DNA from: Eledone cirrhosa | Lineage: Eukaryota | Reading direction: 5' to 3' | NCBI GenBank assembly: GCA_964016885.1 | Contig: OZ024755.1 | Coordinates: 8,804,001-8,868,000 of the forward strand | Length of the DNA: 64,000 bases | Shown: positions 6,552 through 61,077 of the stretch, piece after piece | Layout: each line of letters starts with the position of its first letter | Position numbering within the stretch: position 1 is the stretch's first letter | The notes under the pieces: model-generated | The model's input: the letters and a program-made list of their open reading frames with translations, nothing else | What the model was told of the DNA's origin: nothing | Databases searched by the model: none | Translations under genes and position numbers: made by a program

Positions 6552-6559
<8 letters not shown>

Positions 6560-6943
6560 ATGCTTTGGGAGGGTCATGTTGCCAATAGGAACCACACGAA
6601 CCAGTTGCTTTCACTTCAATTTATTATAAATTAAATTTATAAATTTCCGGTTAGCTGGTTGGTTCCACAACCAGACGATTGGTCATATATTGTCACTGAA
6701 GAGGTCACAGAATATGTGACGAAAGAACTTTGACAATATGTGAACAATCGTCTGCTTGTGGAACCAACCAGCCAACCGGAAATTTATAAATTCCTAAATT
6801 TATAAATTTAATTTATAATAAACTGAAGTGAAACAACTGGTGCGTGTGTTTCTTATTGGCAACATGACCCTCCCAAAGCATAACAATATCGGTTTCAACA
6901 CACGTTTTCAGATAAAGAATCTTGCTAAACAAATTCAGAAACG
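6552..6943. mobile_element. Fold-back insert in (TA)n with a hammerhead at the apex
   Basis: Arms 6552-6695 and 6731-6889 are reverse complements. The right side continues 54 bp to 6943. (TA)n on both sides. Confidence 0.85.
6683..6743 (+). ncRNA. Minimal type I hammerhead ribozyme
   Basis: Stem I UCAUAUAUUGUCA/UGACAAUAUGUGA; core CUGAAGA 6696-6702; extra G; stem II GUCACA(GAAUA)UGUGAC; GAAA 6721-6724; minimal stem III AG(AA)CU; predicted cleavage after CUU at 6730. Confidence 0.8.
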
Positions 6944-19977: not shown

Positions 19978-20249
19978 GACTATCCGGGAGCTTCCAACAG
20001 TAATGGTTGCATTCTTTAAGGGTATGTCAATATTTATTTATAAAACTGTTCTATATTATATTTTATCTGATGAAAGCACACCATAATTTAACTTGGTGTC
20101 CTTGAAATATGTATAATGAAATAAATATGGTTTTATAAATATAGTTTCCATTTGTTAATATCGTATATTTACTCCAATTTTTGTTGAGTGCTTTATATCA
20201 GTTATAAAAATATTTGCTTGTTGCATCCCAACAATTTAAATAGAACTTT

Positions 20250-33582: not shown

Positions 33583-34118
<536 letters not shown>

Positions 34119-47002: not shown

Positions 47003-47166
47003 TAACGAATGAAGTGTGGTAAGGAACCAGGTGGACCATAACGCACCAGAGTACTCGATACTTTGGGTAGTTGAGTGGGTAATACGAAAATGTTCATGAG
47101 CTATAATACGTCCAGAAATAGCCATCGAAACGGCTTGAGCTCTGCCGTCAGGGTCCTGAACATTTT

Positions 47167-48112: not shown

Positions 48113-48927
48113 ACTCTTATCCCCAACCTAATTGACAAAATTGTTTGTTAGTTGGATAAAATACAGGGAAGTCCAAAATTTGAAACTTCTGGTGTATCTC
48201 TGGGCAACAAGATGGCTATCCGGGAGTTATTTATATGCATTTCTGGTCATTATGTTACGCTGATCCTCCTTTAGATTTGTGTTAATGGTACATGTGTCTG
48301 TGGAAAATATAGCCACATGCACTATAGGGGCTGAGATTATAGTTCAAGGAGCCAGTCCTGTCACATTGAAACTACGTGATTATTAAATTAACAGTGTGTG
48401 TGGATGAATGTGTGCGTGTGTGAGCATTTTATATGTGTGTGTGGGTGCGTGTGTGAGCATTTTATAAGTGTGTGTGGGTGTGTGCGTATAGAAAAAAAGG
48501 CATATTTAAAATCGTACCGAATATAAAGTTTAAAAAATATATATGACACCTTCCAGCAGAAATTGGTGAATATCATAAAATAAATGTAGAAAAATCGCAC
48601 AAAATATTCATTGAAACAGATAAAAACAGAAATACATACAGAATGGACTAAAACACTTGTAACGAACTACTGAAAATTAGTTGTTAATAAAAAGTGCGTT
48701 TGGTACTTTATATTCCATAAATAATGTGGTTAAACGTATTGCCTTGAGTGTTACCATAGATTATGGAGTTGAAGCCACTGAACTACTGAGACGTTGTTTA
48801 ACTGTCAAGTACCATTAACCAAAAGTATTTTAATGTTCTCATGAGACTAAACTCATTAACCCAATGTAAACGGAATTAGGAAGATTTAGTAAATTGACAT
48901 TTGATGAAATAATTAATGATGCAGTCG

Positions 48928-49078
48928 AAGACATTGCTGTGCGTTTCAACAGTTCACATCACATCCGTGTGGTTTCGAGGTCATTCCAGCTGTGTGACAA
49001 TTGTCTTTTACTAAATCCTCGGGTTCAGGAATGCTCTGGGGATGATATTTGGTAGACGAGACCTTGCAGAAACCCGTC

Positions 49079-49081
<3 letters not shown>
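48928..49081 (+). mobile_element. SINE family C (decayed) with (TA)n tail
   Basis: ...ATTTGGTAGACGAGACCTTGCAGAAACCCGTCGT followed by (TA)n. Confidence 0.65.
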
Positions 49082-49139
<58 letters not shown>

Positions 49140-49164
49140 TGTAATAAACAACATAAGATAATTA

Positions 49165-49224
49165 TTTCATTTACCAGTGGTTTCTTGGAAGCAAACAAAT
49201 CTGCTTTCAGTCATCAGAATGAAA
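49165..49224 (-). ncRNA. Type I hammerhead ribozyme
   Basis: Mirror of 49295-49354 with one stem II mismatch; predicted cleavage between 49172 and 49171. Confidence 0.8.
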
Positions 49225-49294
49225 AAATCCTGGTGTTTTTATTTTATTTAAAAACCTGTTTTTAAATCCACATTCAATAAAAACACCAGGATTT

Positions 49295-49354
49295 TTTCAT
49301 TCTGATGACTGAAAGCAGATTTGTTTGCTTTCAAGAAACCACTGGTAAATGAAA
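49295..49354 (+). ncRNA. Type I hammerhead ribozyme
   Basis: UUUCAUU-CUGAUGA-C-UGAAAGCA(GAUUUGUU)UGCUUUCA-A-GAAA-CC(ACU)GG-UA-AAUGAAA; predicted GUA cleavage after 49347; positions 10.1/11.1 are C.A. Confidence 0.85.
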
Positions 49355-49694
49355 TAATAATCTTATGTTGTTTATTACATAACTATTAAGCTATGTAACC
49401 TACATAGAGCACTCTTTTTTCCTGGACCTTTCCGACAGAATTACTTCATTCATACATATATATATATATATATATAGGTTAGTTTTCAACCTATTATTTG
49501 TATTTATCGTTGTTGTGGTATAAGTATGACTACTACCTACTGTAGTTTTTTCTTGTTGTCACACTTTATCAACTTTTGTTTTTACTCTGGAGGATAATGT
49601 ATTAACTTCTCGTTCCATTGAATTATTTGTGATTATCTCAAACAGTTCGATTCATACCCAATATTATATGTGTATGTATATGTATATATATATA

Positions 49695-49944
<250 letters not shown>

Positions 49945-51228
49945 TATCTACCTTTGTGCCAGTTGCTATGTTCCATACCTTCACTGTTCGGGAAAATGTG
50001 ACCCATAAAATGAGTGCCAGAATGAATAAAGTAATCTTCCAATATTCCTTCTGAATGAGAAACCTAACACTTCGTTATTGAATCTTGCCAGAAAATCAAA
50101 TCATTTACTTGTATTCTTAGAAATGTACCTAATACTTAACCAGGCAAATTTCAGCAACATCATATAGAGGTGTGGCTTTTAATAGAACTGTGAATGTGTA
50201 TAACAATACATTGGAATCTTATGTCCTCAAGTAAGCCATTAACGATAATAGACAGAGTAAAAACAATAGAGAGAAACGGAATAGAAACATTCCCAGGTTT
50301 AATCCTCCATTTTTATTAATGTGAGTGCGAATGTAAGCTAAACTTGCCTGCAGCTCGTAGAAGTTGTTTTCTAGTAGGTTATAAGCAAAGAACGTTTTTT
50401 AAGCAATTTTTGCTTTAAATAAGCTATTTGATTTTAACAAACTTTGCTAATGCTATAACAACTATGAAAAGTAGGAAAGTTATAAGTAATAAGCGTACAG
50501 GATATGTAAGAAGACAATATACTTCTCTTCCCTTATGTGCATGTCACTTTTTAATGGATATTGCCTAAAGGAATGTGTGATATATGTAGCCACAACAGTA
50601 TCTGTTGTTAACACAAATCTAGAATAGCGATAGAGACATTTTCAATAAACAGAGATAAATTTTACAATTTGATGGCTAAATTCCTTTTAGGGGTTGTTCA
50701 AATCTTAAAACAGGGCCGAGTGTGGTAACCCTTACACTATCAACTGAATCAAATTTTTCATTCGCTTAAATTTACTAGAATTTGCTTTCTGAGTAAACAT
50801 TTGGATGTCTGTTGACTCTTATGAGTTCCTCTGCTCTTTGACCAGTTTTATTTCTCCTCCTGTAAATTGTCCAGAAAATAACCCTCCTCACCAAGCTATC
50901 TTGATGGGGTTGCCTGTTTAGTCACCGTCGATCCGACCGTACAACAGGTTGTACCAGATTACATGTCATAAGTGAGACCTGACATATATAAAAACACAAA
51001 TGCATTTATACATACAGTCGTACATATAATTCTTTATTCTATTTACTTCCCTAGTTTATCTCTTTTCTTCCTCTCTCTCCGGATGTATGCATGTCTTTCT
51101 CTCTCACTATCCCTTTTTGTATGTTTATATATGTATATACATATATAGATAGATGTATGTATATAAATAGATGTATGCATCTATACATATAGATATATGT
51201 GTATGTATATATATATGTGTGTGTGTAT

Positions 51229-54221: not shown

Positions 54222-55912
54222 TTGTGCTTGTATTTATGTGTATGTGTGTGTGTATATGTTTCTCCGTGTCTGTTATTAGGTTGGTGTTTATTTATATGCT
54301 CTGTAACTGAGCGGTTCGAGATAAAGGGATCAATAAAATATGTACAATGCTTTTAAGAGTTTTGTTATGATCGACCTAAAGGCCTTGAAGTGGATACCCC
54401 AGAATGGTCTCAGACCATTGACTGAAATCTGTAAAAGAAAAAGGTAAAGAAAACAACAATCCGAAGCCAAGATGAAGGAAAACCTGTTCGATTCTTGAAA
54501 GAAAAAAAAATCAGTTGTAAACATTTCTATATTTTCCTTTTCTCTCATTATATAAATTCTTCATTACAACATAAAAAGAATTTACACTTCCAACACACAC
54601 CAGTCCCAAAATTATAATATATGATTTAGCGTCTGAAGATTTCTTGGGAAGCAAAGGTTATAAGATTCCTATAAAACCCTTTCAATATGAAATGTCTGTA
54701 AAGCGGGGAAGGGTCGCTAATGTTCAAAACCATGATGTTATAATCATATTTGATAGCAATTCCATTTACAATTTCCTCTAAGAGGATTATAGCTGTTACA
54801 AACAGTAACTTGTGTTTAACTATATTTCATTTCACTAAGCTTATCTAGAAAAGGAAAGAATATTCGGAAAGGATTATCTCACCAAACAGTCGCAATGTTT
54901 GACCGTCTTGTATAACTTGGGAATAAATGTTGAAGTTTATCTGCTTTTTATTTCATGCATCCACCATTTTTCCACCATTTTGTTTGTAATAAAACACCAA
55001 ATAAAATATAGATCACACACCCATAATCTGTAGCTTTATTTAGATTCTATAATATCAAAATTGGTTTTCCTCCTACACTCTCTCCTCTACCCTCTTATTT
55101 TCATCATAGGCTGTCCCTTCCTTTCAGCTTAGATTCTCTCTTCTACTTTTCTCTTTGTTCTTCTCTTCTCCTTTTCCTCCTAGTCTTTCCATCCCTCTTT
55201 TTCTATTTCTTTTCGTTTACGCTTTCTCTTCTTCTTTTCGACTTAGTCTCTTTCTTCTTTCCCTCAGTTTGTTTCCTGCTATTTTCCTCTAAGTCAGTCT
55301 CTTCTCCTTTCTGTTTTTAATCTTTCTCATCACCTATTTCTTCCAGTCTATCTCTATTCTATTTCTTCTTAGCATAACTCCTCTGATTTTCCTCCTAGTC
55401 TATCCTCCTCAACTTCCTTTTCTCCTGCTAATCATTGTTTAATGCTACAACGTACTATTCTTCTTGAATTCCACATCTTGAAATAAGAAATAAAATATCT
55501 TTAAAGGGATTATTCCTCAACAAGAACAACGCGTTTAAACCGAAACTATATTAAGCTGAATTATTATAATAACACAGTTATATGGAAACAATCTATAAAA
55601 TTATACTGAGCCTGTATACCATTAACAAATAATCTTAAATTTTGATCAAAGAGCAGATGACCAGTTTGAATGAAACCTTATACAAATGTCACATAAACCG
55701 CATTGCAGTGGAAGCGTCTGTCTGGAATCGGTTGTGTTGGAATCTGGTTATTGCCAGAGAGTAATTCCAACTCAATTGATTCTATCTTATGATCTTATAT
55801 ATAATCTTTGCTACAAATATACTTCAGGAATCTTGAAGTGAACACGTGTGCTGGCAACATGCTCCTCCCAATGTATATGTATATATATATATATATATAT
55901 GTGTGTATATAC

Positions 55913-56003
<91 letters not shown>

Positions 56004-56456
56004 GAGATCAATATCTCCAGAGGTACTAAGTATCCCTGGAAATATATAGGGTGTCTATGATACAGTGGTTGTTCTATAGTATTAATTTGACATACTAGAA
56101 CTCATAAAATTCTCCATTATGTAGAGAACAAATCTGTTGTTTTATATAGCTGATATTTTTAGTGGCGTGATAGACAACACGTCTATGTTTACTTCCGCTT
56201 CTACTAAGGGCTGGTTCATGTATAGGTCAAATTTACGGCCTCATTCGATCCTGTATTAGCTGGCAGGTGGCAATATATTTTGCCGTTCCTGGGACTTTTG
56301 TCCTCGGTAGGGAAAATGCTTTCTGAAGATCTAAACATTTCCAATCTTTTGTTCACTGAAACCATCGGTAAAAGCAAATGGAATAGGTAAATATTTAAAT
56401 TATATTTTTTTATTTATTTTAAAAAATTTGTTTGAATATTACTTGCTCCGCTATCT

Positions 56457-56505: not shown

Positions 56506-56783
56506 TACAAAGATCGGAATTAAGAGTATTCCGCAGTTCACTGTAATAATAATAATAGAATTAGCTCAAGGAAGGATAGAGAATTTCCTTCTGAGCTCAA
56601 ATTCAAGTATATATTACACAAAGAGAAGTGTGTTACACAGTGAGATGTGTGTAAAGAATTATTACGGGTGGTTTTACCGTTACTGTATAGGTAAAATATA
56701 TACAGTAACGGTAAAATCACTCGTAATAATTCTTTACACACATCTCACTGTGTAACACACTTCTCTTTGTGTAATATATACTT
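56500..56783. mobile_element. Fold-back insert in (TA)n, no recognisable hammerhead core
   Basis: 85-bp arms 56605-56689 and 56699-56783 with a 9-nt loop. The left side continues ~105 bp to (TA)n. Confidence 0.8.
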
Positions 56784-60937: not shown

Positions 60938-61077
60938 ATTCATTTATTATGGCTATTGGGGAGTTTTGTTACTGAAGTTTTACCTGCGCACTCACAGGAT
61001 CACCAATCTTGTTTGATGATCCTGTGACCACGGAGGTGAGACTCCCGAGTAACAAGGCTTAGCCATAATAAATGAAT
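60938..61077. mobile_element. Older fold-back insert with a decayed hammerhead in each arm
   Basis: ATTCATTTATTATGGCTA/TAGCCATAATAAATGAAT, TTGTTACT/AGTAACAA and TCACAGGATCA/TGATCCTGTGA pairings. Confidence 0.7.
61007..61057 (+). ncRNA. Decayed type I hammerhead
   Basis: UCUUGU-UUGAUGA-UCC...GGU-GAGA-CUC(CC)GAG-UA-ACAAGG; C3U and A14G substitutions. Confidence 0.55.

Follow-up and report, generated by a model that had tools for sequence, protein, structure and literature searches.

According to the accessible parts of the papers cited here, insertions of Penelope-like elements (PLEs) contain an inverted 5'-truncated copy, carry a tail of 30-40 bp at one end, and show a bias for (TA)n (PMC8557442). 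PLE copies are mostly arranged head-to-head with palindromes at the junction, an arrangement that the authors read as self-priming (PMC3846280). In vitro, the Poseidon protein of Anolis cuts and extends both target strands, and its reverse transcription starts at two internal sites that bound the tail (PMC11167929). The Poseidon hammerhead cleaves only in the presence of the protein and is dispensable for insertion (PMC11167929). Dual minimal hammerheads, located on opposite strands and 100-700 bp apart, were reported in Schistosoma in 2014 (PMC4209133). A tiny helix III of the dimer type has also been described for PLE hammerheads (PMC4209133, PMC6765202, PMC7761336). Our literature search, which was thin on subscription journals and excluded supplements, found no paper on the family described below or on octopus-repeat hammerheads; the supplements of PMC4209133 or PMC8557442 may list the family.

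The window, a stretch of 64 kb, has a GC content of 32% and is rich in microsatellites. It looks like animal DNA, and its repeats have a cephalopod-like appearance. It contains a real palindrome with a hammerhead motif on each strand. The features of the locus are listed in Table 1. Sequence comparison gives two inverted-repeat arms of 111 bp each with two mismatches, at 49160/49359 and 49188/49331. The symmetry goes on inward via a predicted 9-bp hairpin (49246-49254/49259-49267), and the axis of the palindrome is the 4-nt loop of this hairpin at 49255-49258. The left arm is short of about 6 nt near the centre, a short indel relative to the right arm. The minimum free energy (MFE) of the palindrome region is -180.5 kcal/mol (z -26), and none of 100 shuffles is equally good. 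The whole insert comprises 323 bp and has a TA run on either side. The flanks beyond both TA runs are unlike each other, and a target-site duplication, if any, would hide inside (TA)n.

Table 1. Features of the palindromic insert and its surroundings (window positions; + and - denote the strand, a dot no strand).
Feature	Position	Strand	Basis or detail
Old SINE-like head/body, left of the target microsatellite	48950..49081	+	nhmmer E 1.2e-4
Left (TA)n run, target site	49082..49135	.	Sequence; left arm begins at most 1 nt from the run
Short arm (element end copied in inverse orientation, truncated at its 5' side)	49133..49243	-	Ends where the family has its first end point
Minimal type I hammerhead motif	49165..49224	-	C3 at 49217, GUA at 49174-49172
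Junction with 9-bp hairpin and 4-nt loop	49244..49275	.	Fold; 49259-49275 is family sequence in + orientation
Long arm, repeated part (pLTR-like element end)	49276..49386	+	Depth above 1000 reads over 49290-49379 in both raw-read runs
Minimal type I hammerhead motif	49295..49354	+	MFE structure of 49290-49362 gives the hammerhead fold
Plus motif, helix I	49295-49301/49348-49354	+	
Plus motif, core	from 49302	+	G12 at 49335
Plus motif, helix II	49310-49316/49327-49333	+	
Plus motif, helix III	49338-49340/49344-49346	+	
Plus motif, GUA	49345-49347	+	
One-sided extension (tail), 69 nt	49387..49455	+	Opens with a 7-bp stem-loop at 49391-49407 (fold)
Right (TA)n run, remaining half of the target site	49456..49476	.	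Sequence
Distinct repeat of lower copy number within this microsatellite region, outside the palindromic element	49477..49655	.	Depth about 6-40 reads
SINE-like 3' body after a (TG)n run	49933..50030	+	E 3.4e-4, three-copy profile

The initial annotation, made from the sequence alone, had placed a young palindrome at 49133..49455 with arms that differ at about two positions. The location is correct, but the extent is not, as the symmetry ends at 49386 and the remaining 69 nt are one-sided. The arm difference is exactly 2 of 111 in this analysis, and the described youth agrees with this value (1.8%, 95% interval 0.2-6.5%). The insert is probably young.

Three sites came through a structure-aware hammerhead scan that covered the two strands of the whole window: 49302 on the plus strand, 49217 on the minus strand, and an unrelated site at 20067. 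On either strand of the palindrome, the core reads CUGAUGA...GAAA, helices I and II are both 7 bp long, helix III has 3 bp, and the site is GUA. The earlier description of a full type I hammerhead on each strand therefore stands for the core and the GUA site, but not for completeness, given the 3-bp helix III, the C·A at position 10.1:11.1, and the lack of an Rfam hammerhead match. The motifs are minimal rather than complete. Rfam gave no match at the gathering score in the whole window, and no hammerhead family was present among the 40 matches obtained for 48800-50200 to an E value of 10. These matches are to generic hairpin models, mostly miRNA, fall under the cut-offs of their models, and were rejected.

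Position 10.1:11.1, which closes helix II, is a C·A non-pair in both copies in place of the conserved G-C. The minus copy has an additional A·C mismatch in helix II that comes from the change at 49188. Since no variant is found at the mirror site 49331 among the family variants listed, the left-arm base at 49188 is taken as private. The plus copy alone folds as a type I hammerhead, but 8 of 200 shuffles fold equally well, so that fold energy by itself is weak evidence. Helix III is predicted to have an energy of +0.4 kcal/mol as a monomer hairpin versus -8.2 kcal/mol as a two-copy self-duplex. These predicted energies would constitute the dimer signature described for PLE hammerheads. As a separate observation, a splice-donor-like sequence lies over the GUA triplet of the plus strand, and a pyrimidine tract with AG is present near the end of the tail. 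The putative intron, 49345-49438 (+), would be 94 nt long; it is speculative, and no spliced form was seen. PLEs are known for retaining introns.

The palindrome belongs to a dispersed repeat family of high copy number. Four sequencing runs from two studies, namely two sets of contigs and two RAD-seq runs of raw reads (X21 and X22, both from one study), were compared with 49230-49655. The runs listed as containing the sequence include no RNA run, and 17 with a small share, X4 aside, do not enter the results. Matches were found in 2386 and 148 contigs and in 4161 and 3603 raw reads. Of the matching raw reads, 80-82% leave the family sequence for something unlike it, a pattern that copies would give if they were dispersed, truncated, or diverged. 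The depth exceeds 1000 reads on the arm versus about 6-40 on downstream 49485-49649. The family sequence begins near 49259, where contigs start, and reaches at least 49439 at arm-level depth in a profile that leaves out 49438-49486, including the far end of the tail. The family has a second 3' extent at 49386, where reads turn into (AT)n (263 in X21 and 236 in X22) and 28 contigs of run X1 do likewise. The short arm of the present locus stops exactly at the mirror position of this recurrent (AT)n junction.

The family depth at 49309 shows U in 62-84%, which would give a U-A pair at 10.1:11.1. The listed variants at 49332 and 49352 retain helix pairing as G·U, and none of the listed variants alters the hammerhead core; position 7 varies in loose-end consensuses. 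The hammerhead fold is conserved in the family, with the present locus being a minority form in both arms, to judge from these variants. The right-arm base at 49359 is also a minority allele (T in 77-100% of the depth). Minority alleles at 49309, 49318, and 49332 are common to both arms, indicating that the arms likely derive from one template.

Thirteen of the 15 joints listed connect opposite strands. In nine of these 13, both ends fall within 49259-49297, upstream of the core, at nine positions, and six of the nine recur in both raw-read runs. One of the 15 listed joints, found in a single X1 contig, is a head-to-tail step back of 110 nt. The fold-back joints rest on 1-4 reads each per run and can be mimicked by library fold-back chimeras; they are evidence, though not proof, of fold-back at other positions in other copies. 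In run X4, contigs that belong to related subfamilies extend upstream of 49257, and past 49423 they carry a median of 178 nt of other sequence downstream. This loose-end sequence may lead into the ORF of the parent element.

A masked self-comparison of the window for short-loop palindromes reveals five more, of other sequences, at 373-696, 6555-6886, 33727-33836, 56606-56782, and 60938-61077. All six palindromes, including the present one, have one arm 0-3 nt from a TA run and the other arm 57-225 nt from the next TA run. Of 134529 random TA-free segments of the same lengths drawn as a control, 1662 adjoin a TA run. The tail is 57-104 nt long in five of the six palindromes. The tails are mostly unrelated to each other, with 3 of 15 pairs scoring above nearly all shuffles; a weak likeness links those of 373-696 and 33727-33836 (2 of 500 shuffles). 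Because the same build occurs six times in 64 kb in sequences that are otherwise unlike, the lopsided palindrome is a general trait of the elements that target TA in this DNA.

Additional hammerhead-like motifs are scattered over the window. A decayed type I motif is located at the centre of the 6555-6886 palindrome (6685-6745, plus strand, at 6696). A single type I motif of another family is found at 20055-20130 (+). Another single motif at 56317-56372 (+), the one at 56323, resembles the 49302 and 49217 motifs in helix III and the GUA site. A decayed motif was read by eye at 47095-47150 (+). The regions 33646-34116 and 47004-47157 hold three related copies of another element, one of them palindromic, one single, and one inverted next to the palindromic copy on the far side of a TA run. 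The axis of the palindromic copy falls in the would-be hammerhead helix II. The window also contains closely spaced inverted SINE-like pairs at 10167-10359/10773-10965 (95% identical) and 31255-31330/31664-31739 (100% identical), which are a different route to long dsRNA.

The insertion had been assigned to the (TA)n tail of a SINE. The TA run is instead likely an internal microsatellite, as SINE-like sequence is found past the (TG)n run as well as on the left, in weak matches (E 3.4e-4 and 1.2e-4, respectively). Three tRNA-head-like repeats from elsewhere in the window served to build the nhmmer profile, and its seeds were chosen partly by likeness to 48950-49081, which makes the support weak. 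In a local alignment of 49933-50030 with 54270-54450, none of 1000 shuffles is as good. The head at 48950-49079 and the body at 49933-50030 are presumably parts of one SINE with an internal microsatellite, an assumption that draws in part on the general build of such elements; no intact copy in the window shows the head and the 3' body together. An earlier profile for the SINE 3' part was dropped, since it proved to be the head of another repeat and had no match at the locus. In the separate repeat at 49477-49655, the reads carry many other letters compared with the window sequence. By eye, another decayed hammerhead may be present near 49587-49650.

We consider it about 85% probable that the insert is a heavily 5'-truncated PLE insertion whose mirror arm was made during integration. 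The data show how the insert is built, that it belongs to a family with two 3' extents, and that fold-back joints lie at different positions among the family's other copies. The steps of integration are modelled on PLE biochemistry. The GIY-YIG endonuclease of the PLE would nick both strands of (TA)n. Each target end would then prime reverse transcription at one of two internal RNA sites, 49386 and about 49455. Both cDNAs would stop after 110-200 nt, and their inner ends would be joined through a short hairpin. Priming from both ends is somewhat favoured as the origin of the mirror arm. The main alternative, though a doubtful one, is that a single cDNA folded back and was copied, and the minority alleles shared by the arms fit both routes alike. 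The second hammerhead is a passive copy under either route.

The locus matches PLEs in having a hammerhead in a terminal repeat, a head-to-head inverted truncated copy, a junction palindrome, a tail on one end only with two 3' end points, and a TA run as the target. Several features speak against the PLE assignment. No RT or GIY-YIG ORF is tied to the family within the 109 window frames scanned or the metagenome scans. The 69-nt tail exceeds the published 30-40 bp, and position 10.1:11.1 is mostly U-A in the family rather than the G-C conserved in PLE hammerheads. In the accessible part of PMC11167929, priming takes place without target homology, yet both ends here finish in AT-like letters. 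Pfam yielded no RT or GIY-YIG hit among 109 of the 378 window frames (at least 60 aa, low-complexity frames dropped); the search gave three sub-threshold matches in two frames, none to RT or endonuclease. Truncated PLE stumps are not expected to contain an ORF. A metagenome motif scan for the full-length parent with a 25-nt pattern returned no match. Six metagenome matches to a 19-mer have unlike flanks and were rejected as chance.

The behaviour of the RNA was assessed by fold prediction. In a single arm, the hammerhead fold is predicted to cost 1.1-2.7 kcal/mol and to account for 1-17% of the ensemble; with the whole palindrome present, the cost would rise to 82 kcal/mol on either strand. 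The pairing is predicted to zip up during synthesis of the second arm, and a second fold of comparable stability is predicted to be absent (P about 1e-58). The initial annotation had stated that the sense hammerhead sits in the second-transcribed arm, which is true for transcription in either direction, and that the hairpin would compete with it and probably silence it, which the predictions bear out (82 versus 1-3 kcal/mol, with the long hairpin forming first). It had concluded that the palindrome is a built-in antisense switch. This conclusion is not upheld, because the hairpin is predicted to silence the ribozyme without an accessible second state, and the ribozyme is of a dimer-dependent kind, whereas each transcript contains a single sense copy. 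The two ribozymes are predicted to be buried in the hairpin and inactive in read-through RNA.

An evolved switch, in which the hairpin keeps the ribozyme off until it is opened and the locus is retained as a regulated dsRNA source, is hardly credible and the least probable reading considered. The strongly predicted off state and the low cost of the hammerhead fold in a single arm fit such a device, but a second state is out of reach, and helix III is of the dimer type in a transcript that holds one sense copy. According to the accessible part of PMC4209133, similar ribozymes show no activity in vitro as monomers and weak activity as dimers. The minority C at 10.1 is present in both copies, the minus copy has the further helix II mismatch, and the palindrome build is common in this DNA. 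It is very unlikely that the palindrome is a non-autonomous unit that moves whole, in the manner of a MITE or a retrozyme, with hammerheads that excise it from transcripts of either strand. Nine different upstream axes among the 13 listed opposite-strand joints argue against a fixed unit, even though the 49259 axis recurs (each of the two raw runs contains the joints 49259/49259 and 49259/49267). The copy number is high, as such a unit would predict, and the X1 contig with the 110-nt head-to-tail step back is in its favour, but the ends are asymmetric, with a tail at one side, and lack the symmetric termini of MITEs. The hammerhead fold is predicted to be 82 kcal/mol unfavourable in the entire unit, and window palindromes of unrelated sequence have the same build.

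An assembly or library artefact, in which a single-arm insertion was turned into a fold-back chimera, is slightly less probable than a unit that moves whole. No contig or read crosses the centre of the locus in any of the four runs (depth over 49230-49244 of 0, 0, 0.33, and 0), but the runs also lack the exact flank of the window; at 49636, all X1 depth carries another base. The missing flank indicates that the locus was probably unsampled, so the runs neither confirm nor refute it. A chimera accords poorly with arms that differ at two sites and a short indel, with one private change per arm among the listed variants, and with a short arm that stops exactly at the recurrent (AT)n junction of the family. 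Older and more diverged palindromes of the same build also lie nearby.

The locus is most likely an ordinary mirror-image PLE stump in a TA repeat and not an evolved RNA switch. The six occurrences of the build in 64 kb and the fold-back joints at many axes are what an insertion by-product would give. As a single locus, it is of little consequence, being a predicted-inactive transposon stump of a described kind. Caution is warranted with such structures: hammerheads on opposite strands of a palindrome seem designed, yet they follow from the PLE insertion mode. The family could aid studies of the PLE mechanism, as it is abundant and apparently young, has a tail longer than published, and displays many fold-back positions.

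The palindrome would be dsRNA if transcribed, which would make the locus at most an incidental dsRNA source. Output of dsRNA, small RNA, or editing from the locus is plausible. A precedent in the accessible part of PMC3846280 is the occurrence of antisense small RNAs on rotifer Penelope copies. A broader proposal, which we regard as rather unlikely, is that TA-targeting PLE families of this genome leave near-perfect hairpins of 100-160 bp at about one per 10 kb (six in 64 kb). If many of these were intronic, they would be a major source of long dsRNA, one that renews itself and feeds both A-to-I editing and silencing by small RNAs, including that of the parent elements. Their paired ends, with a fixed short end, a long tail, shared alleles, and a variable centre, would also preserve, across the genome, the information needed to choose between priming from both ends and copying by fold-back.

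The locus can be compared with several known systems, as these are described in the accessible parts of the sources. It resembles PLE insertions with an inverted pLTR and a tail in its head-to-head inverted 5'-truncated copy, small junction palindrome, one-end extension, AT-rich or (TA)n target, and many truncated copies (PMC3846280, PMC8557442). Those PLEs are canonical and endonuclease-positive, whereas the present locus has no ORF, a tail of 69 nt, and no visible target-site duplication. Like the hammerheads of metazoan PLE pLTRs (PMC4209133), the motifs have type I topology, a 7-bp helix II, and a near-palindromic tiny helix III, and they occur as dispersed singles plus opposite-strand pairs 100-700 bp apart. 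The PMC4209133 hammerheads contain an extra nucleotide plus G10.1-C11.1, whereas this position is mostly U-A in the present family and C·A at the locus. Helix I is 7 bp long here and 4-5 bp long in those hammerheads.

Like Poseidon PAc of Anolis (PMC11167929), the family has two end points shortly downstream of the hammerhead with a stem-loop tail between them. The targets are AT-rich in both cases, and PAc extends both strands in vitro. The PAc tail is shorter, and the PAc mechanism comes from purified protein, whereas the mechanism proposed here is derived from anatomy. The locus is also similar to animal non-LTR retrozymes (PMC7761336; bioRxiv 10.64898/2026.07.22.740005), as both are short non-coding repeats with type I hammerheads and a link to PLE ends. 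A direct repeat of the arm, as in retrozyme tandems, is absent from the window. Retrozymes are head-to-tail tandems of about 150-300 bp, whereas the present locus is arranged head-to-head and has one sense ribozyme per strand.
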